Shown one piece after another: positions 9,909-60,669 of a stretch of DNA of 64,000 nt. The translations under genes were made by a program, and so were the position numbers. The stretch is taken from positions 890 through 64,889 of the forward strand of contig CAKPSO010000005.1 of assembly GCA_934183185.1 (NCBI GenBank), written 5' to 3'. The notes below the pieces were generated by a model, which saw only the letters and a program-made list of their open reading frames with translations, had not been told where the DNA came from and ran no database searches. Source of the stretch: an uncultured Bacilli bacterium. GTDB taxonomy: Bacteria > Bacillota_I > Bacilli_A > RF39 > UBA660. Positions within the stretch are counted from its first letter, which is position 1. Each line of letters starts with the position of its first letter.

Positions 9909-10013
9909 TTTTATCACCTGTATACATTATATGATAAATGCTATGTAAATGCAATTTCTATTCTATTGATTTTGACAAATATGTTTGGTATAATTAACAC
10001 CAAGAAGGCGATA

Positions 10014-10376
10014 ATGATGTTGAAATACAAAAAGGGTAAGATAGTAACAGGATGTGTTACTGGTATTGAGAAATATGGAATATTTGTAGGCTTAGATGAA
10101 TTTTATAGTGGACTTATTCATATTTCAGAGATTTCTGATGGATTTGTGAGAGATATTAATGACTATGTTAATGTTGGGGAAACAATAAAAGTTAAGATTC
10201 TAGATACAGATGATGATCATTATCATGTTAAATTGAGTATTCGTAATATTAAGTATCGTATTTGTAATAAAAAAAGAAATAAAATAGTAGAAATTGGGAG
10301 TGGATTTGAGCCACTAAAAAATCATCTTGATGGGTGGATATCTATGAAAATTGATGAAAATTCAAAAAATGAATAA
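10014..10376 (+). CDS. S1 RNA-binding domain protein (YugI/CvfD-like)
   Basis: GKIVTGCVTGIEKYGIFVGL...GLIHISEISDGFVRDINDYVNVGETIKVKIL is an S1 fold signature. Confidence 0.8.
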   Translation: MMLKYKKGKIVTGCVTGIEKYGIFVGLDEFYSGLIHISEISDGFVRDINDYVNVGETIKVKILDTDDDHYHVKLSIRNIKYRICNKKRNKIVEIGSGFEPLKNHLDGWISMKIDENSKNE

Positions 10377-10403
10377 AAAAATTTATTTTTCTAATTATTT
10401 ATA

Positions 10404-10432
10404 TTGACAAATATTTTTATAAATGTTATATT
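10404..10432 (+). promoter_or_regulatory. sigmaA-type promoter of the tRNA array
   Basis: TTGACA (10404-10409), 17-nt spacer, TGtTATATT extended -10 (10424-10432). Lies about 25 nt before the first tRNA. Confidence 0.6.
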
Positions 10433-10457
10433 TGATAACGTCAAGTGATTAGTTCAT

Positions 10458-10534
10458 GGGCGATTAGCTCAGTTGGTTAGAGCACCTGCCTTACAAGCAG
10501 GGGGTCACAGGTTCGAGTCCTGTATCGCCCACCA
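10458..10534 (+). tRNA. tRNA-Val (anticodon TAC)
   Basis: Cloverleaf folded by hand. Anticodon loop CTTACAA, encoded CCA, discriminator A. Confidence 0.9.
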
Positions 10535-10547
10535 TTTTTATATTTAT

Positions 10548-10623
10548 GCCGAAATAGCTCAATTGGTAGAGCAATTGATTTGTAATCAATAGGTTACGGG
10601 TTCGATTCCTGTTTTCGGCACCA
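10548..10623 (+). tRNA. tRNA-Thr (TGT)
   Basis: Acceptor GCCGAAA/TTTCGGC. Loop TTTGTAA. CCA encoded. Confidence 0.9.
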
Positions 10624-10630
10624 TTATTTT

Positions 10631-10714
10631 GGAGAGGTAGCGAAGTGGCTAAACGCGGCAGACTGTAAATCTGTTCCTAACGGTTCGATGGTTCGAATCC
10701 ATCTCTCTCCACCA
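10631..10714 (+). tRNA. tRNA-Tyr (GTA)
   Basis: Long variable arm. Loop CTGTAAA. CCA encoded. Confidence 0.9.
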
Positions 10715-10720
10715 CTAGAT

Positions 10721-10795
10721 TGCCTCGTAGCCAAGTGGTAAGGCATCAGACTTTGACTCTGACATGCGCTAGTTCGAATCTAGCCGAGGCAGCCA
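10721..10795 (+). tRNA. tRNA-Gln (TTG)
   Basis: Acceptor TGCCTCG/CGAGGCA. Loop CTTTGAC. Confidence 0.88.
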
Positions 10796-10811
10796 TTTAA
10801 AAATATTATAC

Positions 10812-10887
10812 GCTTCGTTAGCTCAGTCGGTAGAGCATTTGACTTTTAATCAAAGGGTCTGGAGTTCGAATCTCCAACGAGGCACCA
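10812..10887 (+). tRNA. tRNA-Lys (TTT)
   Basis: Acceptor GCTTCGT/ACGAGGC. Loop CTTTTAA. Confidence 0.9.
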
Positions 10888-10895
10888 TATTTTGT

Positions 10896-10984
10896 GCCTG
10901 AGTGGCGGAATTGGTAGACGCACAGGACTTAAAATCCTGCGAGCTTCAACACTCGTGCCGGTTCAAGTCCGGCCTTAGGCACCA
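10896..10984 (+). tRNA. tRNA-Leu (TAA)
   Basis: Long variable arm. Loop CTTAAAA. Confidence 0.9.
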
Positions 10985-10987
10985 TAC

Positions 10988-11080
10988 GGAGGAATACCCA
11001 AGTCTGGTTGAAGGGACCGGTCTTGAAAACCGGGAGGTCGTGCAAGCGGCGCAGGGGTTCGAATCCCTTTTCCTCCGCCA
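10988..11080 (+). tRNA. tRNA-Ser (TGA)
   Basis: Long variable arm. Loop CTTGAAA. Confidence 0.9.
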
Positions 11081-11088
11081 TCTGATAT

Positions 11089-11165
11089 CGCGGGATAGAG
11101 CAGTCTGGTAGCTCGTTGGGCTCATAACCCAGAGGTCATAGGTTCAAATCCTATTCCCGCAACCA
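11089..11165 (+). tRNA. initiator tRNA-fMet (CAT)
   Basis: C1:A72 mismatch (CGCGGGA...TCCCGCA). GGG/CCC in the anticodon stem. Loop CTCATAA. Confidence 0.88.
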
Positions 11166-11169
11166 ATGT

Positions 11170-11245
11170 GGTCTCGTAGTGCAGGGGTTAACACGTCTGC
11201 CTGTCACGCAGAAGATCGCGGGTTCAATTCCCGTCGAGACCGCCA
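11170..11245 (+). tRNA. tRNA-Asp (GTC)
   Basis: Acceptor GGTCTCG/CGAGACC. Loop CTGTCAC. Confidence 0.9.
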
Positions 11246-11248
11246 TAT

Positions 11249-11324
11249 GGCTTCATAGCTCAGTCGGTAGAGCAAAGGACTGAAAATCCTTGTGTCACTG
11301 GTTCGATTCCAGTTGAAGCCACCA
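11249..11324 (+). tRNA. tRNA-Phe (GAA)
   Basis: Acceptor GGCTTCA/TGAAGCC. Loop CTGAAAA. Confidence 0.9.
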
Positions 11325-11355
11325 TTATAATTTTGAAACGTATAAGTTCGAAGCT

Positions 11356-11432
11356 GCGCTCGTAGCTCAGCTGGATAGAGTGTTTGGCTACGAACCAAAA
11401 GGTCAGGGGTTCGAATCCCTTCGAGCGCACCA
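11356..11432 (+). tRNA. tRNA-Arg (ACG)
   Basis: Acceptor GCGCTCG/CGAGCGC. Loop CTACGAA. Confidence 0.9.
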
Positions 11433-11433
11433 T

Positions 11434-11510
11434 CGAGATGTGGCTCAACTTGGTAGAGCACGTGGTTTGGGACCATGGGGTTGCAGGTTCAAATCCTGTC
11501 ATCTCGACCA
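11434..11510 (+). tRNA. tRNA-Pro (TGG)
   Basis: Acceptor CGAGATG/CATCTCG. Loop TTTGGGA. Only 1 nt after tRNA-Arg. Confidence 0.9.
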
Positions 11511-11520
11511 TTGAATATTA

Positions 11521-11547
11521 AAAGTCTTGAATTTCAAGGCTTTTTTT
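11521..11547 (+). terminator. intrinsic terminator of the tRNA array
   Basis: 9-bp stem AAAGTCTTG / CAAGGCTTT followed by a T-run. Confidence 0.7.
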
Positions 11548-11555
11548 CTGCTATA

Positions 11556-11645
11556 AAATGTTAATTTGTTTTCAAAAATTTAACGCGTTATTTAAATATG
11601 TTAAAAAAATCAAAAAAATTTAACATGTTTCTTGTATATGTTAAA
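11556..11645 (+). promoter_or_regulatory. phased operator-like half-site array upstream of fic
   Basis: ATGTTAA at 11558, 11598 and 11638 (40-nt phase). Palindromes TAACGCGTTA (11581-11590) and AACATGTT (11622-11629) lie midway. Confidence 0.45.
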
Positions 11646-11681
11646 TAATAGGTGTAATATTATATATGAGGAGATGAAAAT

Positions 11682-12737
11682 ATGAAGTTATTACCATTTA
11701 AAGATTATGATTTAAAAACTCCTAGAATACTTGAGGCATTGAATGATGCGTCTAGATCACTTGCAGAATTGAAAGGATTTGCTAATTCAATTCCAAATCA
11801 ACATATATTGATTAATGCAATAACTATTAATGAAGCTAAGGATAGTAGTGCTATAGAAAACATTGTTACTACACATGATAGTATTTATAAAGTATTAACA
11901 GAAAGTGGATTCAAAGAAGATGCCGCAAAAGAGGTAGTGGATTACAGAAGTGCTATTTGGCGTGGCTATGAAATTATTAGTGAAAAGGGCTTTATTTCTA
12001 CTAATATTTTGTTGGAACTTCAGGCGATGATTGAGCCCAACAAAACTGGTATAAGAAGGACACCTGGTACTAATTTAGTCAATAGTGCTACTGGAGAAAT
12101 TATTTATACACCGCCACAAACAGAAAATGAGATAAGAGACTTGCTTAAAAATTTAGAAGATTATATAAATGATTTTGATGATGATGTAGATCCATTGATT
12201 AAAATGGCTTTAATACATTACCAATTTGAAAGTATTCATCCATTTTATGATGGAAATGGTAGAACTGGAAGAATATTGAATATTTTATATTTAGTGTTAA
12301 ATAACTTATTAGATAGTCCGATTCTTTATTTAAGTAATTATATAAATAAAAATAAAAGTGATTACTATAGACTATTTACTGAATTTAGAGAAAAAAATAA
12401 TTATGAAGACTGGATTATATACATCTTAAAAGGGATAGAAGAAACTTCTAAAAATACAGTTGAGTTAATTAAGCAAGTACAGCTTGAAATGGAATCTTAT
12501 AAGAAAGAGTTTATAGATAAACTACCAAAAATATATTCTGATAAATTACTTGATTCTTTATTTTTTGAAGTTTATACAAGAATAAACTATATAGAGGATA
12601 GATGTAATGTTACAAGACAAACTGCAGTTACATATTTAAATCAACTAGTTGATGTGGGATTACTTGAGTATGAAAAAGTTGGGAGAGAGAGTATTTATAA
12701 AAATACGCGTTTAATTGACTTAGTTAGGAAATTTTAA
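11682..12737 (+). CDS. Fic family protein (putative AMPylase, autoinhibited class II-like) with C-terminal wHTH
   Basis: Fic motif HPFYDGNGRTGR. Upstream inhibitory-helix-like SSAIEN (S/TxxxE(G/N)). GAGGAG RBS. Confidence 0.9.
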   Translation: MKLLPFKDYDLKTPRILEALNDASRSLAELKGFANSIPNQHILINAITINEAKDSSAIENIVTTHDSIYKVLTESGFKEDAAKEVVDYRSAIWRGYEIISEKGFISTNILLELQAMIEPNKTGIRRTPGTNLVNSATGEIIYTPPQTENEIRDLLKNLEDYINDFDDDVDPLIKMALIHYQFESIHPFYDGNGRTGRILNILYLVLNNLLDSPILYLSNYINKNKSDYYRLFTEFREKNNYEDWIIYILKGIEETSKNTVELIKQVQLEMESYKKEFIDKLPKIYSDKLLDSLFFEVYTRINYIEDRCNVTRQTAVTYLNQLVDVGLLEYEKVGRESIYKNTRLIDLVRKF

Positions 12738-12753
12738 AATATTTTTTGATATT

Positions 12754-12789
12754 AGCTTAATAAAAGTATCATTTTATTAAGCTATTTTA
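12754..12789 (+). terminator. intrinsic terminator after fic
   Basis: Perfect 12-bp stem AGCTTAATAAAA / TTTTATTAAGCT, then a T-rich tail. Confidence 0.6.
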
Positions 12790-12877
12790 CTTCTATTTAC
12801 AAAAAGTTAACCTTTATTCTTGATGTTTAGTATTATTTTGTGGTAGAATTAATTTAGAAAAAATAGAGAGTAGGGGT

Positions 12878-14767
12878 ATGATGAAAAATTCACAGTATTC
12901 TAAGAAAATACTCTTGTTATCAATAAGTATAATAGTACTTTTAGTAATAGCTTTAGGAAGTACATATGCTATATTTACTTATACTAAATTAGGAACTACA
13001 GATAATACGATAACTACAGGTACATTAAAGTTCTTATATACAGAAAATAGTACCGGTGGAACAGGAATAAATATAAGTGAGGCAGAGCCAATATCAGATA
13101 CCCAAGGAAAAGAATTGGTAGGAGATAAGAATGTATTTGATTTCAAGGTAACAGGTACTAATACTAGTAATAGTGATTTACCATATGGAATAACTCTAAA
13201 AAAGAAAAATGATTCTACTTTAGTAGATGAAGGAGTAAAAGTATATTTAACTGAAGTAGCAGGAAATAGTGAAACAGTATTAATTGGACCAACTCTATAT
13301 AGTGAATTAACTCAGTCAGTACAGAGTAGTGATAATGAAAAGGTAGTATATGTTAATAAAGTAGCAGCTAATACTAAGAGTTATGAAAAGAGTTTTAGAT
13401 TAAGAATATGGATAGATGAAAATTTAGATTTTTCTAGTGGTAATTATAATAATAAAACATTTACAGCGACAGTAAATGTATACTCTAATGATAAAGTTAA
13501 AGAAGAAAAAATTGTATACAAAGAATCAATATTAAATGGAACAGATCCAGTATTAAAGGATAATTTAGTACCAATAAAAATAGCCAGTGATGGAACAGTA
13601 ACAAAAGCAGACTTATATCAGGAATGGTATAATTATGAAAATAAAGAATGGGCCAATGCCGTAATACTAAAAGATGAAACAAAAACATATAATAATGGAG
13701 AAACAATACCAGAATCAAATATTGAATCATACTTTGTATGGATACCTAGATATAAGTACCAAATATTTGATGAAGGAAATTATACAGGATTAACTAGTAT
13801 CGAAAACAAAGTTCAAACAATAAATGTAGTATTTGAGAATAAAGATACAACTCCATCAAATGGAACTACTAAAGGTACATGGTTAACACATCCAGCATTT
13901 ACTAGCTTTGATTCAAATGGTTTCTGGGTAGGAAAGTTTGAAACTGGATATGATGGGGCTACAAGTACTAGTGCAGCTCAAGTAAATAGTGTAGATACAA
14001 GCAAAATAATAATAAAGCCTAATGTATATTCATGGAGAAATATAAATGTAGGGAATATATTTAAAAATAGTTATGATTATCAAAGAAGTTTAGATAGTCA
14101 TATGATAAAGAATACCGAGTGGGGAGCTGTAGCATACCTTCAACATTCAATATATGGTAGTCAAGCTAGTGTAAGATTAAATAATAATAGTGCTTTTATT
14201 ACAGGATATATGGGTACTGAAGAACCAACCAAAGGGTACAGTTCATCAAGTATAGATGGTAATAGATATGAATCAACATCATTAGGAAAAGATGGAACAT
14301 ATACTGTAAATTATTTAAATAGTAAATCAACTGTAGCATCAACTACAGGAAACAAAAGTGGAATCTATGATATGTCCGGAGGAGCCTGGGAATGTGTAGC
14401 AGGCTATACAACTGGATCAACAACAGTAGGTGGAAGTAGTGGAATAGCTAGTTTATATTCCAACTTCTTTACTAATAGTACTTATACAAAATATTGGGAT
14501 AAGTATACATCAACTACTAATACACAGTATAATAATAGAATTTTAGGAGATGCAACTGGAGAGATGGGACCATTTGGAAATGAAAAAGATCCAGATAATA
14601 GTTCTAGACAAAAATCAAGTTGGTATGGAGATTTCGCTAACTTTGCTAATTCTTCTAATCCTTGGTTCCTACGCGGGGGCAATTGGAGCAGTGGCACTGC
14701 TTCTGGCGCCTTTGCATTCAGCAGCTTTTCAGGCACTACGAGCTCGCGTACAAGTCTTTCCGTGTAG
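12878..14767 (+). CDS. secreted or anchored modular protein: conserved N-module (TasA/camelysin-like, SipW-type-signal-like) + linker + FGE-sulfatase/C-type-lectin-fold-like head; 3' end apparently frameshifted
   Basis: N-terminus LGSTYAIFTYTKLGTTDNTITTGTLKF. Head motifs GIYDMSGGAWECVAGY and PWFLRGGNWSSG. The expected terminal SFRVVLAP is in the +2 frame after about 14750. Confidence 0.6.
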   Translation: MMKNSQYSKKILLLSISIIVLLVIALGSTYAIFTYTKLGTTDNTITTGTLKFLYTENSTGGTGINISEAEPISDTQGKELVGDKNVFDFKVTGTNTSNSDLPYGITLKKKNDSTLVDEGVKVYLTEVAGNSETVLIGPTLYSELTQSVQSSDNEKVVYVNKVAANTKSYEKSFRLRIWIDENLDFSSGNYNNKTFTATVNVYSNDKVKEEKIVYKESILNGTDPVLKDNLVPIKIASDGTVTKADLYQEWYNYENKEWANAVILKDETKTYNNGETIPESNIESYFVWIPRYKYQIFDEGNYTGLTSIENKVQTINVVFENKDTTPSNGTTKGTWLTHPAFTSFDSNGFWVGKFETGYDGATSTSAAQVNSVDTSKIIIKPNVYSWRNINVGNIFKNSYDYQRSLDSHMIKNTEWGAVAYLQHSIYGSQASVRLNNNSAFITGYMGTEEPTKGYSSSSIDGNRYESTSLGKDGTYTVNYLNSKSTVASTTGNKSGIYDMSGGAWECVAGYTTGSTTVGGSSGIASLYSNFFTNSTYTKYWDKYTSTTNTQYNNRILGDATGEMGPFGNEKDPDNSSRQKSSWYGDFANFANSSNPWFLRGGNWSSGTASGAFAFSSFSGTTSSRTSLSV

Positions 14768-14990
14768 TGCTTGCTCCTTAGGCACCGAAGGTGCTGTTAA
14801 CCCTCGCGTAAACAGGAATTGGAGAAAAGTATAAATCATTAAATTAAATAAAACTATTGATATATGAGGCTATAGCTTTTCTCTTTTTATGAAAAGATGT
14901 GGCCAAATTATGACGTTTGTATGTTTGAAATATACATAGTACAAATGTAGGAATATGGTTATAACAACTCAATTTTCTTTGTTAGTGTTA

Positions 14991-15142
14991 CTTGCTCACT
15001 TTGCTAATTCTTCTAACCATTGGTTCCTACACGGGGCAATTGGAACAATGGTACTGAATCTTGTGTATTTGCATTTAACTGCTTTTTAGACACTACGTAC
15101 ATGGTCAATTCTTTTCGTATAGTCCTAACACCAACTGTATAA
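14991..15142 (+). pseudogene. remnant of the 3' end of a second FGE-sulfatase-like head gene
   Basis: Aligns to 14637-14781 of the upstream gene. Reads RGNWNNGTESCVFAFNCFLDTTYMVNSFRIVLTPTV* after a 1-nt deletion in the G-run. No 5' part present. Confidence 0.7.
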
Positions 15143-15193
15143 AAAAGAAATCTGTCTTTAGTTAAAATATGATTAATAAATAGGAGAAAAATT

Positions 15194-15832
15194 ATGAATA
15201 ATGATAATAATAAAAATAATAAAATGTTTATGTTAGTAATTGGAATGTTACTTTTAGTAGTAATAACTGTAGGAGTAACATACGCTATATTTAGTTATAC
15301 TAAATTAGGAACAACAGATAATACTATACGTACTGGTAGTTTGAAATTTTTGTATACTGAAAATAGTGCTGGAGGAACAGGAATAAATATAAGTGAAGCA
15401 GAACCAATATCAGACGCACAAGGAAAATCTTTAGTAGGAGATAATAATGTATTTGACTTTAAAGTAGAAGGAACTAATGTAGGAAGTGATACTATTCCAT
15501 ATGAAGTAACATTAAGGAAGAAAAAAGATTCAACTATGGATGAAAATGATATAAAAATTTATTTACAAGATACTAATGATAATAGTGATTTATTAGTACC
15601 TACACTTTACAGTAATCTTAAACAAACTAAGGTGGATGTTGATGATAATATAGAAAAAACATTATATACTGGTGCAGTTAAATCTGGTGAGGTAGCTTAT
15701 CTTAAATCATTTAGATTAAGAATGTGGGTAGATAGTAATAGTACTCAAGAGGAAGTCAATGGTAAGACATTTAAAGCTACTGTAAATGTATATGCTAATG
15801 CTAAATTAGCTAGTGATACTATTGGTAATTAG
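15194..15832 (+). CDS. headless paralogue: conserved N-module only (TasA/camelysin-like)
   Basis: 212 aa. VGVTYAIFSYTKLGTTDNTIRTGSLKFLYTENSAGGTGINISEAEPISD is near-identical to the neighbours. AGGAG RBS. Confidence 0.7.
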   Translation: MNNDNNKNNKMFMLVIGMLLLVVITVGVTYAIFSYTKLGTTDNTIRTGSLKFLYTENSAGGTGINISEAEPISDAQGKSLVGDNNVFDFKVEGTNVGSDTIPYEVTLRKKKDSTMDENDIKIYLQDTNDNSDLLVPTLYSNLKQTKVDVDDNIEKTLYTGAVKSGEVAYLKSFRLRMWVDSNSTQEEVNGKTFKATVNVYANAKLASDTIGN

Positions 15833-15866
15833 AAATAGATAACATATCAACAAAATGGAGTTTTTT

Positions 15867-17330
15867 ATGGATAATAAAAATAATAATAGATTGGTTTTAT
15901 CATCTATACTTGGAATTATTAGTTTAATATTAATTACTTTGGGAGTAACATATGCAGTATTTACTTATATTAAGGAAGGAACTACAGATAATGTAGTTAC
16001 ATCTGGTACATTAAAGTTCTTGTATACAGAAAATAGTGCTGGAGGTACTGGAATAAATATAAGTGAAGCAGAACCAATATCGGATACACAAGGAAAATCT
16101 TTAGTAGGAGATAATAATGTATTTGACTTTAAAGTGGAAGCAACTAACACAGGTAGTGAAGTAATACCATATGAAGTAACACTAAGAAAGAAAGATATTT
16201 CTACTATGAGTGAAGATAATGTAAAAGTATATTTAACAGATGAAACAGAGAGTACTGATATAGTAGAACCAACTCTATATAGTAAATTAACACAAACTAA
16301 TATAGACGTAGGAACTAATATAGAGAAGACTCTATATAAAGGAGAAGTAGCAGCGAGTACTAATAATTATTTAAAGACATTTAGATTAAGAATGTGGATA
16401 GATGGAAATAGTAATCAAAATGATATAAATGGGAAATCATTTACAGGAATGGTAAATGTATATTCAAATGCTAAAGTAACTGAAAACACTAGTACTACTT
16501 TAAAAAATGAAATAATGAAGAATCCTATAGTAGAAGCAGAACCAACATTAACTAAAAATATTTCATCCTCTGGTGATGCAAGTGGATTATATTCTTCAAC
16601 TGCTACTAATACAGGAGCTGCAACTTATTATTTTAGAGGAGCAGTAGAAAATAACTATGTATCATTTGCAGGTCAAACATGGAGAATTGTAAGAGTAAAT
16701 GAAGATGGTACTATTCGTATGATTATGCAAGATGGAATTAATGATAATAAACTTAATTACTATAATACTAAAGGTACTTTAGGAGAATATTATAAAACTA
16801 TGTATTATACAAATAGTGAAGCTAAAACTACCCTTGATACTTGGTACAATACTAATATAGGAGTTAATGAAGAATATTCCAAATATGTAGTTACAGGTAA
16901 TTATTATTGTGAGCAGGCTAAAACTAGAACAAATGCTATCTATGGCTTTGAAAATGCTACTATGCCATTATATAGCGATTATACTGCAGAATTTAAATGT
17001 CAAACTGATGGAAATGGTTATGGCTTAGTAAATGCTAATATTGGGTTAATTACTTATGATGAAGTAGTATATGCTGGTGGTTATGCACATGTTTCAATTG
17101 AAAATACTTATCTATATGGTGGAACTACTAATTCTAATCAGTGGTTTACGATGTCTCCAGCTGGTACTGCAAATGAAGATGCTGTAATATGGGTTTTAAT
17201 TTCTGGTAAGTTTTTAGGTGATACTTCTGTTAAATATGGTCCATGTATACTTAGACCAGTAATTAATCTTAAAGCCAATACTATAGTTACTGGTACAGGT
17301 ACAGCTGATAATCCATATAAAGTTCAATAA
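15867..17330 (+). CDS. modular paralogue: conserved N-module + beta-rich head (YYFRG...WRIVRV...RPVINL, DUF6273-like)
   Basis: The N-module is clearly similar by eye to the 15194 ORF. The C-terminal head is homologous to the C-terminus of ORF 34844-35950. Confidence 0.7.
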   Translation: MDNKNNNRLVLSSILGIISLILITLGVTYAVFTYIKEGTTDNVVTSGTLKFLYTENSAGGTGINISEAEPISDTQGKSLVGDNNVFDFKVEATNTGSEVIPYEVTLRKKDISTMSEDNVKVYLTDETESTDIVEPTLYSKLTQTNIDVGTNIEKTLYKGEVAASTNNYLKTFRLRMWIDGNSNQNDINGKSFTGMVNVYSNAKVTENTSTTLKNEIMKNPIVEAEPTLTKNISSSGDASGLYSSTATNTGAATYYFRGAVENNYVSFAGQTWRIVRVNEDGTIRMIMQDGINDNKLNYYNTKGTLGEYYKTMYYTNSEAKTTLDTWYNTNIGVNEEYSKYVVTGNYYCEQAKTRTNAIYGFENATMPLYSDYTAEFKCQTDGNGYGLVNANIGLITYDEVVYAGGYAHVSIENTYLYGGTTNSNQWFTMSPAGTANEDAVIWVLISGKFLGDTSVKYGPCILRPVINLKANTIVTGTGTADNPYKVQ

Positions 17331-17336
17331 TCTATT

Positions 17337-17369
17337 AAAATCAATTAGTAAAGTCTAATTGATTTTTTT
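17337..17369 (+). terminator. intrinsic terminator of the paralogue cluster
   Basis: 12-bp stem AAAATCAATTAG / CTAATTGATTTT plus a T-run. Confidence 0.75.
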
Positions 17370-17418
17370 GCATGTTTTTTAATTCTTATCATATATTTAA
17401 ATAGAAAAGAGGGATAAG

Positions 17419-18189
17419 ATGAAAAAAATGGTGCCTTTTACTAAACAGATTCATTTTAAAACAATGATTGCTGAAGTAACTGATATTGAGGTAACTCATA
17501 ACTTAGAAATTAAAGAAGATAATACGATTGAGGGTGATATATTAGTAGACGGAAGATATAAAATACATGAAGCTAGTCAATTAGAAGAAAAATTCCATTA
17601 TAATTTACCATTTACTATAGAAGTAGACTCTAAATATGATATTTCTAAAGCTAGTATTGCGATTAGTGATTTTTACTTTGAAATTATTAATGAAGAAGAC
17701 TTAAAAATAAACGTTGAATTAGAAATATATGATGTAGATGAGAAAAAAGTAGAAGTTGGTACTAGAGAAGAAATAGAACCAATTCCTATTGAGGTTGATG
17801 AACAACCAAAAAAAATTGAAATACCTAGTATTGATGAGATAGAAGAAGATATTAAAGAAGAAGTAGTTGATACTAATAAGAATAATACTACTTTAGATAG
17901 TGAAAAAATTAACTTTAAAATTACAGATACTAATATAAATACCAATACTTCTACTTCTAATACTACTAATACTAATACTAATACTAATAAAAACTATAAT
18001 ACTATTTTTGATACTATATCTGGTGATGAGACATTCGTTACATACTATGTATATATAGTTAGGGAAACTGATACCATTGAAACTATCTTAGATAAATATC
18101 ATGTTACTAGAGAAGATTTATCACTATATAATAACTTAGATGATATAAAGATTGGTACTAAAGTAATAGTTCCATGTCACAATGAATAA
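17419..18189 (+). CDS. SpoVID-like spore-coat morphogenetic protein with C-terminal LysM
   Basis: N-terminal SpoVID-type beta region, acidic linker, Thr/Asn repeat, and LysM (YVYIVRETDTIETILDKYHVTREDLSLYNNL...IGTKVIVP). Followed by a ysxE-like gene, as in Bacillus. Confidence 0.6.
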   Translation: MKKMVPFTKQIHFKTMIAEVTDIEVTHNLEIKEDNTIEGDILVDGRYKIHEASQLEEKFHYNLPFTIEVDSKYDISKASIAISDFYFEIINEEDLKINVELEIYDVDEKKVEVGTREEIEPIPIEVDEQPKKIEIPSIDEIEEDIKEEVVDTNKNNTTLDSEKINFKITDTNINTNTSTSNTTNTNTNTNKNYNTIFDTISGDETFVTYYVYIVRETDTIETILDKYHVTREDLSLYNNLDDIKIGTKVIVPCHNE

Positions 18190-21690: not shown

Positions 21691-23418
21691 ATGGAGAGAG
21701 ATTTAAAATTAATAAAGGAAAAGTATGGCGAAAAAATGATGCACTATTGTAGATCAGAATTATCAACTATTTTAGAAAATGATGGGTTATTACCAAGTTT
21801 ACTTTTAGAACATTTTAATGAAAGTCATATGTTATATGATGATATTGAAAAAGAGGGTAAACTAGAAGAATTTAAAAACTATATATATAGTTTAATTGAT
21901 GTTGAAAATAATAATGAAAAATTAGAAAATAGAACGCCAGAAGAATTATTAAGTAAAGCTGGTTATAATTTTTATGAATGTAAAACAGAGGAAGATATTC
22001 AATCATTTAAAAAATATTATTTTAAAGGTGAAGAACTATGTACATTTAAAGGTGGAAGATTAGAAAAATGTCATGTATTTTTTGCTGTTAAAAAGAATGT
22101 AGATGAAATAAAAAGAGAAAATTTTTCTAAACCTAAGAGACAAGATGAATATGGAACATCTGTTATAAGTATTCAGTTTACAAAAGGAAGTTGTGCTTTA
22201 TCAATTAAGAATAGATATAATCATACAGTAAATAATCCAGATGCAACTTTTTCAAATAATCTAGATAATATAATAGAAGGATTAGCAAAAAGTTTTGAAA
22301 ATCAATATGGGTTTGTTCAAGAAAATAATAGTGATTTTGAATTAAAAAATTATGTTAATGTTAAAGGAAAATATTATAAATATAATTATGAAATTGATAA
22401 TGTTTATTATTGCTTAGATAATATTATAATAGATAATTTTGATGTAAAAAAATATGATGATGAGAGATACATTGTATTCGATTATTTTGTACTTGATTTA
22501 AAAGAAAAGAAAATTTTAACAGAAGTGGAAGATGATTCATTTATAGATGGAATAGTAGATATAGATAAAATAAATATTGTAAAGTTAGAAAATGGAAAAG
22601 CAATTCATTTAATCCCTATAAATGGGGAAGAAATTATAATTGAATTAGATAAACAAAATAGGATTGTAAAATATAAAAATAATAATATTAAACGATGCGA
22701 TGATGATTTTTTGTATTTCAATGAGTCATTACAAGAATTAAATTTGCCAAACCTAGAACGATGTGGTGATAATTTTATATATTATAATAAATCATTACAG
22801 GAATTAAATTTACCAAGCCTAGAACGATGTGGAGATAGTTTTTTGATTTCTAATGAATCATTACAGGAATTAAATTTACCAAGCCTAGAACGATGTGAAG
22901 ATAGTTTTTTGCTTTCTAATGAATCATTACAAGAATTAAATTTGCCAAACTTAAAACAATGTGGAGATGGTTTTTTGTTTAGCAATCAATCACTACAAGA
23001 ATTAAATTTACCAAACCTAGAACGGTGTGGTAATAATTTTATATATTATAATGAATCATTACAGGAATTAAATTTACCAAACTTAAAACAATGTAGAGAT
23101 GGTTTTTTGTCTAAAAATAACTCATTACAAGAATTAAATTTGCCAAACCTAGAACGATGTGGTAATAATTTTATATATTATAATGAATCATTACAGGAAT
23201 TAAATTTACAAAACCTAGAACAATGTGGAGATAGTTTTTTGTCTAAAAATAACTCATTACAGGAATTAAATTTACCAAACTTAGAACAATGTGGAGATAA
23301 GTTTTTATATTATAATCGTTCATTACAAGAATTAAATTTACCAAGCCTAGAACGATGTGAAAATAGTTTTTTGCTTAGCAATCAATCACTACAAGAATTA
23401 AATTTGCCAAAAAAATAA
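21691..23418 (+). CDS. leucine-rich-repeat protein (about 330-aa unknown N-domain + 10.5 x 22-aa LRR), no signal peptide
   Basis: Repeats SLQELNLPNLERCGDNFIYYNx. GGAGG RBS. Confidence 0.75.
   Translation: MERDLKLIKEKYGEKMMHYCRSELSTILENDGLLPSLLLEHFNESHMLYDDIEKEGKLEEFKNYIYSLIDVENNNEKLENRTPEELLSKAGYNFYECKTEEDIQSFKKYYFKGEELCTFKGGRLEKCHVFFAVKKNVDEIKRENFSKPKRQDEYGTSVISIQFTKGSCALSIKNRYNHTVNNPDATFSNNLDNIIEGLAKSFENQYGFVQENNSDFELKNYVNVKGKYYKYNYEIDNVYYCLDNIIIDNFDVKKYDDERYIVFDYFVLDLKEKKILTEVEDDSFIDGIVDIDKINIVKLENGKAIHLIPINGEEIIIELDKQNRIVKYKNNNIKRCDDDFLYFNESLQELNLPNLERCGDNFIYYNKSLQELNLPSLERCGDSFLISNESLQELNLPSLERCEDSFLLSNESLQELNLPNLKQCGDGFLFSNQSLQELNLPNLERCGNNFIYYNESLQELNLPNLKQCRDGFLSKNNSLQELNLPNLERCGNNFIYYNESLQELNLQNLEQCGDSFLSKNNSLQELNLPNLEQCGDKFLYYNRSLQELNLPSLERCENSFLLSNQSLQELNLPKK
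22691..23412 (+). repeat. 66-bp tandem coding repeat (LRR units)
   Basis: About 11 in-frame units with high nucleotide identity. Confidence 0.9.
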
Positions 23419-26490: not shown

Positions 26491-27345
26491 GTGATATCAC
26501 TTATTGAAAAAGAAACTCTAGTAAATGATAACTTTGTATCACTGTTATCTGATACAACATTTAAGTATCTATATAAAAACATAGATACTAGAAGCTGGTT
26601 ACAAACTATTATTAAAGAAGTATTTCTATTAGATATTACAGATTATCAATTAACAGATAATGAATCAAATACTGGTAATAAAGTAAAAGATTATCGAATG
26701 GATTTAAAACTAGTAAATGGAAAGAATACTATAATAATAGAAATGAATAAAGAGTATTATGAATTTATAGATTCAAAGAACTACCAATACTTGTACCGTG
26801 AAGCTGGAAGTTTATATGATACAGGAGAAGATTATCAAGATAGAAAGACTAAACTAATTTCATTCAATAACTATAGAAATAAGAAGATACCATCATTAAA
26901 GATGGGAAGTTATGTATTTATAGATCCAAAAACTAAATTAAGAATAGAAGATATAGAAAGTTATGAGATTTATTTACCTAATTATAAGAAAGTATGTTAT
27001 GATAGTAGTGAATTAGAAGTTAGCTTAAGTTTATTTAGTGCAGATAGTTTTGATAAGATGAGGAAGCTAACTAATAATCCAAGAGATATAAAGATTATAG
27101 AAGAATTGGAGAGATTAGCTATGGATGAAGAATTCAAATTACATTATAACGCTGAAGCGGTCAAAAGAAAGACAGAGAATTCTATCAAGAAAGAATCTTA
27201 TCGACATGGACTAGAAGATGGTTCTAAGCAAGAAAAATTAGAGATAGCTCAAGCTATGCTAAATGAAAGGTTGGATATGCAGCTTATTTCTAGAACTACC
27301 GGTTTATCAGTAGAAGAGATAGAAAAATTTTGCCAATCATTATAA
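26491..27345 (+). CDS. Rpn-family / PD-(D/E)XK nuclease-family putative transposase
   Basis: DYRMDLKLV...IIIEMNKE (D...D...E.K-like core). C-terminal GLSVEEIEKF helix typical of the family. GTG start. Confidence 0.6.
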   Translation: MISLIEKETLVNDNFVSLLSDTTFKYLYKNIDTRSWLQTIIKEVFLLDITDYQLTDNESNTGNKVKDYRMDLKLVNGKNTIIIEMNKEYYEFIDSKNYQYLYREAGSLYDTGEDYQDRKTKLISFNNYRNKKIPSLKMGSYVFIDPKTKLRIEDIESYEIYLPNYKKVCYDSSELEVSLSLFSADSFDKMRKLTNNPRDIKIIEELERLAMDEEFKLHYNAEAVKRKTENSIKKESYRHGLEDGSKQEKLEIAQAMLNERLDMQLISRTTGLSVEEIEKFCQSL

Positions 27346-34710: not shown

Positions 34711-34843
34711 AAAATCTCTCCTCAACATAATGTATGACATACACATATTCTTGTATAGGCAAAATCCCAAAAATAAAAGATGTTTATTGTATTAGAAAGC
34801 ATTATTTGGTATAATGATATATATAAATGAAGGAGAGTTATGT

Positions 34844-35950
34844 ATGAAAGATTTTATTAATGATATAGGTAAGAAAAAATTATTAATAATACTTGGTAGT
34901 ATAGTAGGAGCTATTGTGTTAATAATTATTATTCTGCTTTTATATAATGCTTTTTTTAAGAAGAATAGTTATAGCTCAGTTGAAGATAAGGTACTACAAG
35001 CAGCTAAGGAATATTATTCAGATAATGCTAATTTATTACCTAAAAATATTAATGATGAGGTAAGTATTAATAGTACTACTTTAACTTCTGGTGACTATTT
35101 AAAAAGTTTAGATGAATTAGTGCCAGATAAAAATGTTAATTGTACCGCAACAGTAACAGTTACTAAGATAAGTGATAGTTATAGATATGTTTCTAAGTTA
35201 AAGTGTGGAGAAAAGTATGAGACTAAGACTATAGCTGATTATATTAAGAGTACTGATGGGACAGTTATATCAGGTCAAGGATTATATGAAATGAATGGAG
35301 ATTTAGTATATCGTGGTGATAATCCTAATAATAATATTAGTTTTGCTGGTAAGAAATGGAATATAGTTAAGATTGAAAATGGACAGTTAGAATTGATTTT
35401 AAATGAGAAATCAACTAGAGTTACTTGGGATGATCGTTTCAATGTTGAACGTAATCAAGATGATGGTATAAATAATTATTCTGTTAGTAGAGCTAATGAT
35501 TATTTGACTAACTTATATAATAGTGATGAGTTAATAAAGAGTGATGATAAGCTTGTGGTTACTGCTCATAATTTATATATTGGTAAAAGAAGCATTGATG
35601 TTTCTTATAATGATGGTTCTATAGAAAAATCAGAAACATTAGAGAATAAATATATTGGATTTTTGCCATTATTTGATTATATTAATGCTAGTTTAGATAG
35701 TAATTGTCTTTCTGCTTCAACACAGTCATGTGCTAATTATAATTATTTGGGTAGTGTTGGATATAATTGGTGGACTATGACGGGTGATTCTGATACTACT
35801 CATAAAGTTTATAGAATTAATACTGATGGTAAAATATCATTATCTAGAGCTTCTACTACTGTATATGCTAGGCCAGTAATTTATTTGGCTAAGGATGCTG
35901 TTTATGTAAAGGGTAATGGTACAACTTCTAATCCTTATGTAGTTAAGTAA
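34844..35950 (+). CDS. membrane-anchored protein with the same beta-rich head as ORF 15867-17330
   Basis: GLYEMNGDLVYRGDNPNNNISFAGKKWNIVKIENG...YNWWTMTGDSD...ARPVIYLAKDAVYVKGNGTTSNPYVV. Confidence 0.65.
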   Translation: MKDFINDIGKKKLLIILGSIVGAIVLIIIILLLYNAFFKKNSYSSVEDKVLQAAKEYYSDNANLLPKNINDEVSINSTTLTSGDYLKSLDELVPDKNVNCTATVTVTKISDSYRYVSKLKCGEKYETKTIADYIKSTDGTVISGQGLYEMNGDLVYRGDNPNNNISFAGKKWNIVKIENGQLELILNEKSTRVTWDDRFNVERNQDDGINNYSVSRANDYLTNLYNSDELIKSDDKLVVTAHNLYIGKRSIDVSYNDGSIEKSETLENKYIGFLPLFDYINASLDSNCLSASTQSCANYNYLGSVGYNWWTMTGDSDTTHKVYRINTDGKISLSRASTTVYARPVIYLAKDAVYVKGNGTTSNPYVVK

Positions 35951-36038: not shown

Positions 36039-36115
36039 GGCGGTATTGGTGAAGTGGTTAACACGCCGGATTGTGGCTCCGGTATGCAAGGGTTCGATCC
36101 CCTTATTCCGCCCCA
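36039..36115 (+). tRNA. tRNA-His (GTG)
   Basis: Extra G-1 paired to discriminator C. Loop TTGTGGC. CCA encoded. Confidence 0.88.
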
Positions 36116-36157
36116 TTTTGAAATTTACGCACACCTTTGTGTGTTAAATAAGTAAAA

Positions 36158-36188
36158 GTTCGTAATACTTGGTATTATGGACTTTTTT
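36158..36188 (+). terminator. intrinsic terminator after tRNA-His
   Basis: 11-bp stem GTTCGTAATAC / GTATTATGGAC (two G-U pairs) plus T6. Confidence 0.6.
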
Positions 36189-36212
36189 CTTTGCGAAGGT
36201 GGTGAATAATAA

Positions 36213-36503
36213 ATGAATGTGTCCATAGAAACTTTAGAATTTCCTTTGTGTATAAAAAATAAAATATTAAGGATTAAAGATATTACTAAACTAAACATAG
36301 GATATATATCAGGTAAGAACATAATCTTTAAAAACACTAATTTAGGGTTATTTGAGCCACATAAAGTTATTATTAGTAATAATTATAACGGAATAGTATT
36401 ACTTTGTTATAATGAGGATACAACGCTTTATAGGGATGATTTAAGTACAATTACAATAAATGAGATAACAGATATAATTAAGGTGTTATTAGAAAAAAAT
36501 TAA
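36213..36503 (+). CDS. hypothetical small protein, paralogue of 58217-58492
   Basis: Shared TNL..(F/I)EPH(K/R)VII core and the same position (tRNA - terminator - this ORF - recombinase). Confidence 0.5.
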   Translation: MNVSIETLEFPLCIKNKILRIKDITKLNIGYISGKNIIFKNTNLGLFEPHKVIISNNYNGIVLLCYNEDTTLYRDDLSTITINEITDIIKVLLEKN

Positions 36504-36714
36504 AAAAATTTTAAAATTTATTTTTTCCTTTATTTATAAGGACTTAACGACAATTTTTGGGTATGATTTTCAAAAAAGTGGCCGTTGCATGTCCTAAAAA
36601 AATGTGGTATATATGGTAATATACGACAATTGTAGATAGTTGTATATTTATGTAGTTTGGTAGTTCTAACACAAGGGAAATTCTCTTGTGTTTTTTTGTC
36701 GTTAAAAAATATAG

Positions 36715-38199
<1,485 letters not shown>

Positions 38200-57879: not shown

Positions 57880-58000
57880 CGTACTTGAAAAAATTTATGG
57901 GCTGTTAGCTCAGTTGGTAGAGCAACTGACTCTTAATCAGTGGGTCTAGGGTTCGAATCCCTAACAGCCCACCATATGTATATTAATTTTTTCAAGTACG
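57880..58000. repeat. perfect 16-bp inverted repeat bracketing tRNA-Lys(CTT)
   Basis: CGTACTTGAAAAAATT (57880-57895) and AATTTTTTCAAGTACG (57985-58000). Confidence 0.9.
57899..57974 (+). tRNA. tRNA-Lys (CTT)
   Basis: Acceptor GGGCTGT/ACAGCCC. Loop CTCTTAA. CCA encoded. Confidence 0.88.
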
Positions 58001-58002
58001 AT

Positions 58003-58036
58003 AAAACTAACTATTAATTTATAGTTAGTTTTTTTA
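58003..58036 (+). terminator. intrinsic terminator between the two tRNA genes
   Basis: AAAACTAACTAT / ATAGTTAGTTTT plus a T-run. Confidence 0.7.
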
Positions 58037-58040
58037 TAAA

Positions 58041-58116
58041 GCCGACTTAGCACAGCTGGTAGTGCAACGCACTCGTAACGCGTAGGTCGTAGGTTCGAAT
58101 CCCACAGTCGGCACCA
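58041..58116 (+). tRNA. tRNA-Thr (CGT)
   Basis: Acceptor GCCGACT/AGTCGGC. Loop CTCGTAA. CCA encoded. Confidence 0.88.
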
Positions 58117-58159
58117 TTGAGCAATCTATTCTAACTTTTGTTAGATTTAAACATATAGT

Positions 58160-58187
58160 ATCAACTTCAAGAAGAAGTTGATTTTTT
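58160..58187 (+). terminator. intrinsic terminator after tRNA-Thr
   Basis: ATCAACTTC / GAAGTTGAT plus T5. Confidence 0.7.
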
Positions 58188-58216
58188 GCATTTAAGGAAA
58201 GAAAGGATAGATTTAG

Positions 58217-58492
58217 ATGATTAAATTAAAAACAAAAGAATTACATTTTGATGAAGAACTAAAAAAGAAAATTGAATTTATATGTGATTTTTGTAATACT
58301 AAACCAACAATTATAAATGGTAGTATCAAAAACATAGAACACACAAATTTGAACTATATAGAACCTCATAGAGTTATTATTAAAGGTATTACTTTTTTAG
58401 TTTTTAATTATTCTAAAACTATATATGTTGGAAGTCTTGCAAATTCCCTAGAAATAAAAGATTTGGAAAGCTTTATTAAATCATTAGATTAA
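58217..58492 (+). CDS. hypothetical small protein, paralogue of 36213-36503
   Basis: TNLNYIEPHRVII core. Conserved position. Confidence 0.5.
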   Translation: MIKLKTKELHFDEELKKKIEFICDFCNTKPTIINGSIKNIEHTNLNYIEPHRVIIKGITFLVFNYSKTIYVGSLANSLEIKDLESFIKSLD

Positions 58493-58558
58493 ATGTATTG
58501 AAACTTAATCAACTTCTCTTAAAATGCCTTTAAATAGGCAAAAAATGGTAAATATGTC

Positions 58559-58586
58559 TTGACTTTAAGATTTAAATATCTATAAT
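58559..58586 (+). promoter_or_regulatory. sigmaA-type promoter upstream of the recombinase leader
   Basis: TTGACT, 16-nt spacer, TATAAT. Confidence 0.45.
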
Positions 58587-58725
58587 AAGTAACCAAGAAA
58601 CAAGTTTTATGTTTTTGGGGGTTAATATGAAACGAAGTTTGAATTATATTAATACAACTTATTTAGATTTTAAGAGGTGTCAAAGGCATAAAAATATTTA
58701 ATGTGTCTTTGTCGCCTCTTTTTAG

Positions 58726-60669
<1,944 letters not shown>

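Follow-up and report, generated by a model that had tools for sequence, protein, structure and literature searches.

A large, previously unnamed family of predicted surface proteins with exchangeable heads in uncultured gut Bacilli, one of them apparently a former target of a diversity-generating retroelement

In the tapA-sipW-tasA system, SipW processes both TapA and TasA, TasA polymerises by means of an N-terminal donor strand, and TapA, which has a similar N-terminus, has been proposed to give the first strand and to start the fibre (PMC9674648). Binding domains of the C-type-lectin class are known as targets of diversity-generating retroelements (DGRs): 5VF4 is a DGR variable protein of Thermus aquaticus with a C-type-lectin fold (bioRxiv 10.1101/432187), and DUF6273 domains, which are modelled as C-type-lectin-like, are DGR targets in gut phages (PMC10743442). 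Here we analysed a stretch of 64,000 nucleotides from an uncultured Bacilli bacterium (assembly GCA_934183185.1, contig CAKPSO010000005.1, positions 890 to 64,889), referred to below as the window, in which three tandem genes encode proteins with one common N-terminal module (the N-module) and different C-terminal heads. Uncultured low-GC Bacilli of this type are common in human and animal guts, and to our knowledge there is next to no information on their means of attachment or of sensing the environment. Proteins of the family defined by the N-module probably make up much of their surface.

The first-pass annotation of the window had proposed three tandem open reading frames (ORFs) with a common module and exchangeable heads, and both the alignment (~205 aa) and a family hidden Markov model (HMM) bear this out. 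Paralogue A (12878..14767, + strand; 629 aa) consists of the N-module (aa 1-~205) followed by head A (aa ~215-629), as delimited by the ORF list, the alignment and the family HMM (E = 3e-84). Paralogue B (15194..15832, + strand; 212 aa) is a headless N-module, supported by the same three sources and by an AlphaFold model, and paralogue C (15855/15867..17330, + strand) joins the N-module to head B, a DUF6273-like region at aa ~244-491 (ORF list, alignment, AlphaFold and Foldseek). The mechanical ORF list gives paralogue C 491 aa from position 15855, as against 487 aa from 15867; the latter, which was the start originally given, is probably the true one, because the orthologues are 487 aa long. 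With the family HMM the three ORFs score E = 1e-84 to 1e-89 and the next ORF of the window only E = 0.09, and 93 of the aligned columns are invariant; the shared module is far beyond chance.

Conservation within the module is uneven. Residues 32-92, including the stretch FLYTENS(A/T)GGTGINISEAEPISD(T/A)QGK, have identities of 69-97% at the protein and 75-94% at the DNA level, in comparison with just 49-58% protein identity over residues 93-205. The three proteins thus do not differ only in what follows the module, as had been stated, since its second half is ~50% diverged. Conservation at the DNA level had further been ascribed to recent duplication or gene conversion. The stretch of residues 61-92 is 94% identical in DNA between ORFs 15194 and 15855, and local gene conversion is therefore plausible, for this pair only.

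Scans of the three proteins with Pfam, NCBIfam and PHROG gave no model that matches the N-module, and searches of PDB sequences with phmmer and with profiles gave chance-level matches only. None of the 114 close homologues is named by any source, and no description of the family was found in the searchable literature, in line with the original statement that no system of such composition has been described. The family is thus invisible to current annotation. It appears to be previously undescribed and is large: clustering at 50% identity gives no fewer than 4,840 clusters at E <= 1e-3 and 569 at E <= 1e-30. The survey of related genomes that the first-pass annotation had called for yielded 106 members in 79 loci of uncultured gut metagenome-assembled genomes, with more than 10 copies in some genomes; the record labels of the hosts read Bacilli, 'Tenericutes' and Candidatus Scybalousia. 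The genes are dispersed among housekeeping genes (tig, lon, greA, metG and rsmA). Of the 106 members, 41 lack a head and have a length of about 200-260 aa, and the other 65 bear a C-terminal extension of up to ~700 aa. Apart from heads A and B, the heads comprise ALK/LTK glycine-rich, DUF285/LRR and sortase domains and three Laminin_G_3 (ConA-like lectin) domains. These architectures make the N-module an all-purpose carrier of extracellular domains that bind ligands or act as enzymes.

The N-terminus of the module is composed of a short K-rich stretch and an uncharged run with a median length of 21 residues, leading to a putative cleavage site. Among 330 members, position -3 is T or S in 97% and position -1 is A, S or G in 98%; downstream, a hydrophobic residue at +1 is followed by F at +2, T, N or S at +3 and Y at +4, giving the near-invariant motif (T/S)-x-(A/S/G)↓xF(T/N/S)Y. 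This pattern fits the (-3, -1) rule of type-I signal peptidases, and in paralogues A and B cleavage is predicted at TYA31↓I32. We obtained AlphaFold2 monomer models of the headless 212-aa protein and of the 491-aa protein. Both contain a hydrophobic helix, then a low-confidence stretch (~33-60) and a confident eight-strand beta-sandwich; in the headless model the helix covers residues 5-35, the disordered part 33-60 and the sandwich 63-201 (predicted local distance difference test, pLDDT, above 90). For the 491-aa protein the sandwich reaches a pLDDT of about 80-90, and for the headless protein mostly >90. The unstructured stretch of ~30 residues ranks among the two best-conserved parts of the protein, and its disorder in both models is compatible with donor-strand exchange, not diagnostic of it. 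A type IV or sortase-dependent pilin was considered and rejected: Pilin_N reaches 14 bits on the window proteins against a cutoff of 25.2, the window has no prepilin-peptidase or sortase motif, and LPXTG-type C-termini are absent from all family members examined, among which no sortase substrates were found.

In seven related genomes, two N-module genes (NMOD) belong to an operon of the order yabE-NMOD-NMOD-sipW-memA-memB-rsmA, in which memA and memB encode small membrane proteins. The peptidase of this operon scores 86.8 bits with TIGR02228 (cutoff 51.85), the archaeal/endoplasmic reticulum (ER)-type class that includes SipW, and E = 1e-23 with the SipW equivalog model. The first N-module paralogue (type 1) has a polar tail of 20-35 aa, a transmembrane segment and a degenerate motif, with an additional Pro/Thr-rich linker before the sandwich in two genomes, and looks like a membrane-tethered base, while the second (type 2) has the canonical signal and motif. 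By analogy, the arrangement would follow the tapA-sipW-tasA logic. Right after the core operon, two loci (L062:9935-11251 and L063:10843-12138) encode an N-module fused to a sortase domain (PF04203, E = 1e-24) by a Pro/Glu/Ser-rich linker of ~100 aa. Conserved genes that alternate with those of the N-module family ahead of spoVID (c23, c24, c13 and c14) were tried as a possible assembly machine and discarded, as they encode an HD-domain protein, GreA, trigger factor and Lon. A motif scan of the 64-kb window found no SipW-type peptidase, sortase or prepilin peptidase, so that the original remark that neither sipW nor a sortase gene lies here is upheld.

A likeness to TasA and SipW-type signals had been pointed out from the start, and it proves to be partial. 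What stands is the cleavage context and the SipW-class operon of the seven relatives. The TasA site GGGTWA↓AFND, whose mature start at residue 28 was verified against PDB 8AUR, is laid out like that of the N-module, and the SipW-type context (G-x-T-aromatic-A↓x-F) is present in the N-module family. What does not stand is a likeness beyond this region. No match to PF12389 was obtained for the three window proteins (E <= 1) or the core-operon members (E <= 10), whereas all 120 TasA homologues listed carry it. With hhalign, the family profile and a PF12389 profile of 40 sequences align only between residues 5-70 of the N-module and 2-62 of TasA (E = 0.0017, probability 15%); against the single TasA sequence, E is 0.003 at 35% identity, and the probability in the TasA comparisons ranges over 10-15%. 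These alignments are in register across the signal and the N-terminal strand and, together with the SipW synteny in relatives, they are what one would expect of a highly diverged true TasA/camelysin homologue that forms biofilm-matrix or spore-associated fibres and has gained heads later. TasA was first reported as spore-coat associated (PMC9674648), and the window genes lie between yutH-like and spoVID/ysxE-like genes. Nevertheless, the hhalign match comes mostly from the hydrophobic signal; when the signal is removed, the register is kept and the match loses significance (E = 0.22), and the sandwich bodies have no similarity. TasA is also missing from the top 50 Foldseek matches of the N-module, and the sporulation genes nearby reflect ancestral synteny, shared with tig, lon and valS. 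We therefore reject membership of the TasA/camelysin family, the resemblance being limited to the signal and N-terminal strand, and regard common descent with extreme divergence as unlikely.

How might such proteins reach and cover the cell surface? We lean towards a model of export and display, in which the proteins are exported to the surface on a common N-module and most of them (~60% in related loci) carry exchangeable heads with a ligand-binding or enzymatic role. An N-module protein would be exported and cut by a SipW-class peptidase after TYA31. Cleavage would free the conserved N-terminal stretch, which could then, in the manner of TapA/TasA, dock as a complementing beta-strand onto the sandwich of another N-module, be it a membrane-tethered anchor paralogue or a further subunit. 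In this scheme the structural subunit would be the headless 212-aa protein, and the headed proteins would be the adhesin-bearing ones, decorating or capping the structure; the end product may be a polymeric fibre or a cell-bound display complex. That the docking is iterative and builds a fibre or scaffold is a tentative extension of this model, on which the donor-strand fibre with tip adhesins put forward in the first-pass annotation would be plausible. Equally speculative is the wider picture of a SipW-dependent strand-complementation scaffold of gut Bacilli, built from dozens of dispersed paralogues with interchangeable heads, some of them hypermutated by DGRs.

Several observations weigh against processing and strand assembly. 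The predicted helix runs unbroken through the proposed cleavage site; Foldseek searches of the N-module against PDB and BFVD return generic beta-sandwiches only (TM-scores <=0.35); the best TIGR04088 score is 9.1 bits (E = 1.5; cutoff 19), a partial match in ORF 12878 only; and, as said, the comparison with TasA fails once the signal is taken away. The 64 kb of the window contain neither sipW nor the core operon, which was found in only 7 of the ~20 genomes sampled, a sample of at most 80 loci that is biased against more divergent core-operon paralogues. Finally, the fusion of N-module and sortase suits a cell-bound stalk better than a fibre. Indeed, each protein may instead sit alone in the membrane by an uncleaved signal-anchor, with the sandwich spacing the head from the cell, although we find this rather doubtful. 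The continuous helix 5-35 through the TYA motif, the length of the hydrophobic run, the type 1 paralogues that look like real membrane anchors and the sortase fusions all agree with such a stalk, as sortases work at the membrane-wall interface and are attached here by a long Pro-rich linker. But small residues at -3 and -1 in 97-98% of the 330 members would be unexpected in a pure anchor, a SipW-class signal peptidase is a conserved operon partner, and a passive spacer hardly explains why the most conserved part is an unstructured stretch just outside the membrane. In a stalk, this juxtamembrane stretch would serve in folding or in contacts with the membrane proteins of the core operon, a reading that we hold to be just as doubtful.

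Export and display of heads remains our preferred model, and the heads themselves can be characterised further. Fusions of head A (~420 aa) to the N-module occur in at least 12 loci. The first-pass annotation had recognised this head as FGE-sulfatase/C-type-lectin-like, and its orthologues agree: 3 of 14 match PF03781, if weakly (best E = 1.3e-3). Head A of the window itself has no PF03781 match at E <= 10. Searched against PDB sequences, the head A profile returns 5VF4 alone (E = 0.5), aligned at the HPAF, EW.A.A and G..D..G..WE motifs. Head A is thus predicted to be a distant FGE-sulfatase/C-type-lectin-like domain, and it would constitute a ligand-binding surface, a role for which targeting by a DGR is an independent mark.

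The last ~135 nt of ORF 12878 are repeated 357-358 nt downstream. We interpret the first copy as a DGR variable region (VR; 14636..14771, + strand), which extends from the 3' end of paralogue A to just past its stop codon, and the second as the non-coding relic of a decayed template repeat (TR; 14994..15126, + strand), 79% identical to the VR. At L021, the locus with the closest orthologue of head A, the DGR is complete, its VR lying at 11754-11894 and its TR at 12110-12250. All 12 VR/TR mismatches there are at template adenines, the TR frame is Asn-rich, and the cassette includes bAvd (72 bits, cutoff 40) and a DGR-type reverse transcriptase (RT; PHROG E = 7e-110). The window VR is homologous to that of L021, and the offset between VR and repeat is ~357 nt in both. 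Directly 3' of the window VR is a GC-rich hairpin (GGCACC-GAA-GGTGCT) followed by GTTAACCC (14781..14803, + strand), a candidate target-recognition element. The combination of a GCAC..GTGC hairpin and ATTAACCC stands just 3' of the VR in the window, in strain L080 and in the active L021, and after no TR copy, which is the asymmetry expected of a DGR target end. Since the offset, the Asn-rich frame and the VR-specific hairpin are all shared with L021, we read 14994-15126 as a relic TR and reject a simple pseudogene remnant.

Comparison of strains lends further support. Differences between the VRs of the window and L080 fall at 17 of 28 template-adenine positions versus 14 of 107 positions elsewhere (odds ratio 10, P = 9e-7). 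Across four strains there are three VR alleles, with 16-22% divergence compared to 3-4.5% in the N-module and spacer, making the VR the most diverged segment. The conserved N-module is a handle for finding the adhesin repertoire of these organisms in metagenomes, and the VR alleles may serve as strain markers. At 12 of the 15 positions where TR copies differ it is the window TR that deviates, mostly by C>T or G>A as in AT-biased decay. The same decay is found in strains L081 and L082, and because the VRs of these strains and of the window retain the undecayed bases, they seem to have been written before the template decayed. An active DGR in the window was rejected. Its 26 VR/TR mismatches (12 A, 11 T and 3 C) are not adenine-specific, the TR decay is shared with L081 and L082, and tblastn with the RT and Avd of L021 found nothing in the window and none in the close strains either. 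ORF 12878 thus appears to be a DGR target with frozen diversity, provided that no RT encoded in another part of the genome works from a second template. Both this status and the relic TR are new relative to the first-pass annotation.

Some further features of these regions are worth recording. Head A shows a mosaic pattern across strains. Over 13491-14100, and again from the VR through to the TR, L081 and L082 have identical sequences, but they differ at 21 of 610 positions in the N-module and 32 of 533 in 14101-14633, which points to recombination within the head A gene. Between the TR and Avd of L021 lies a gene for a 145-aa MutS-domain-I protein (L021:12432-12866; PF01624, 48 bits), an unusual DGR accessory. 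A 94-aa ORF in an alternative frame overlaps the window VR (14550-14834, + strand) and has 'homologues' at other loci; it is most likely a by-product of GC-rich conserved VR DNA, not a gene.

At least 22 loci encode head B (~250-280 aa) joined to the N-module, frequently with a cadherin-like spacer ahead of the head. ORF 15855 itself is below every Pfam threshold, while 6 of 20 head B orthologues match PF19789 (DUF6273; best E = 2.2e-6). The top Foldseek match of the 491-aa model, over 289 columns and with a probability of 1.00, is 9QA6, the IgA peptidase ThomasA of Thomasclavelia ramosa, in which the N-terminal domain (residues 31-322) is annotated as DUF6273. This domain is not needed for IgA cleavage by ThomasA (PMC12402451). 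The DUF6273 check suggested in the first-pass annotation was therefore positive, and head B is modelled as a DUF6273-like domain of the C-type-lectin class, with a direct structural match and a sequence match via its orthologues. No VR/TR pair was found for head B. A distant paralogue of head B is encoded at 34814..35950 (+ strand; BLAST link; DUF6273 14.6 bits, cutoff 23.5). It lacks the N-module, has another membrane anchor at its N-terminus, and is matched by a 74%-identical orthologue in L005. This gene was examined as a fourth N-module gene and dismissed, as it shares the head only.

Gut phages commonly have DGRs and targets of the DUF6273/C-type-lectin kind (PMC10743442), and this raises the question whether the three proteins are receptor-binding proteins of a phage and the cluster a prophage remnant. 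A BFVD search does give tail-fibre-like beta-sandwich modules at E ~1e-3, with TM-scores that do not exceed 0.33, and serine recombinases occur elsewhere in the window. However, no PHROG family matches any of the proteins, tblastn with the N-module against 50,697 phage genomes found nothing, all members have export signals at the N-terminus, and the genes around the cluster serve housekeeping and sporulation, none of them being a structural gene of a phage. A phage origin is accordingly very improbable.

The genomic setting agrees with a resident locus. The window has a GC content of ~27%, as in low-GC Firmicutes, and nearly all of its genes are on the + strand; the three N-module genes sit between the sporulation genes, the yutH-like one on one side and the spoVID- and ysxE-like ones on the other. 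Upstream are an array of 12 tRNA genes (10458..11510, + strand; ARAGORN and Rfam) and, directly adjoining, a Fic-family gene (11682..12737, + strand; Fic_N, Fic and SoFic-like_C of Pfam, all above cutoff), both as first annotated. An accessory-island position had been deduced from them, and this we could not sustain: the GC content of the locus matches its surroundings, the layout of the window recurs in three contigs of close strains, and the slot just upstream of spoVID-ysxE holds N-module genes in six other genomes. Because of this recurrence in close strains and elsewhere, the locus is a stable chromosomal site, not a recently acquired island. The full order Fic - head A gene - 212-aa - 487-aa - spoVID is present in 2 of the 3 close-strain contigs, the third starting within the head A gene. 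Hadza human-gut metagenomes contain close strains of the window organism. The Fic gene is found upstream in L081 and L082 as well; it forms a singleton cluster absent from other family loci. As it is kept only in close strains, we rejected it as a part of the system, and the tRNA array is mentioned as context only.

An Rfam scan of 10000-18000 gave nothing beyond tRNAs, and promoter and terminator scans returned counts equal to the shuffled expectation and were uninformative. Elsewhere in the window, tRNA-His is followed by a split serine-recombinase gene (36040-38199; gene parts 36730-37362 and 37564-38199), and tRNA-Lys and tRNA-Thr by a large serine recombinase of 637 aa (57899-60669; gene 58756-60669); these two regions are probably integrated or decayed mobile elements. 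The 575-aa protein encoded at 21691-23418 has an internal imperfect repeat of ~190 nt, and its 597-aa orthologue in close strains has weak LRR_5 matches; it may be another surface protein. A conserved family of ~280 aa is found near N-module loci (26491-27345 in the window, L021:14393-15223 and L034:6551-7414), and its L021 copy follows directly after the DGR RT.

With respect to described systems, the closest are tapA-sipW-tasA of Bacillus subtilis and the archaeal AbpA bundling pili (PMC9245690). In common with them, the N-module family has two paralogous secreted beta-sandwich proteins that share an operon with a SipW-class (S26B, archaeal/ER-type) peptidase and of which one looks like an anchor or initiator, a cleavage context of the form G-x-T-aromatic-A↓x-F-(N/T/S), and a conserved mature N-terminal stretch that is unstructured in the monomer model. 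In contrast to them, no homology with TasA can be detected in the sandwich body, the family exists in very many copies scattered over the genome, the core operon has two extra membrane proteins, and the window locus has no sipW; unlike TasA, most members bear large C-terminal heads (C-type-lectin-like, LRR, ConA-like lectin, glycine-rich or sortase). Should SipW-linked assembly be true, the TasA/AbpA principle would reach a new carrier fold.

The heads have their own counterparts. Head B resembles the DUF6273 proteins (ThomasA, 9QA6, and phage tentaclins) in its fold match and in the PF19789 matches of its orthologues, and differs from them in being C-terminal on an N-module carrier. Head A resembles the type V pili adhesins (bioRxiv 10.1101/2024.11.15.621889), Mtd, TvpA and TaqVP (5VF4), in which the VR is likewise at the C-terminus of a C-type-lectin/FGE-like domain, and L021, with its VR, TR, Avd, RT and adenine-only mismatches, has what DGR variable proteins have. 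The window element departs from classical DGRs as a relic with a decaying template and without RT or Avd, and the L021 cassette departs from them by adding the small MutS-domain-I gene. With the Bacteroides type V pili, the family shares the placement of a binding head on a carrier module, which in the type V pilus assembles by strand exchange; here the host is a gut Bacillus of the Gram-positive type and the carrier is unrelated to FimA-type pilins. It is conceivable, if less than probable, that the proposed scaffold is the Gram-positive counterpart of DGR-diversified type V pili, on a carrier fold without detectable TasA or pilin homology. If SipW-linked assembly holds, the family would offer a second independent case in which the adhesive portion of a strand-assembled structure at the cell surface is diversified by a DGR.

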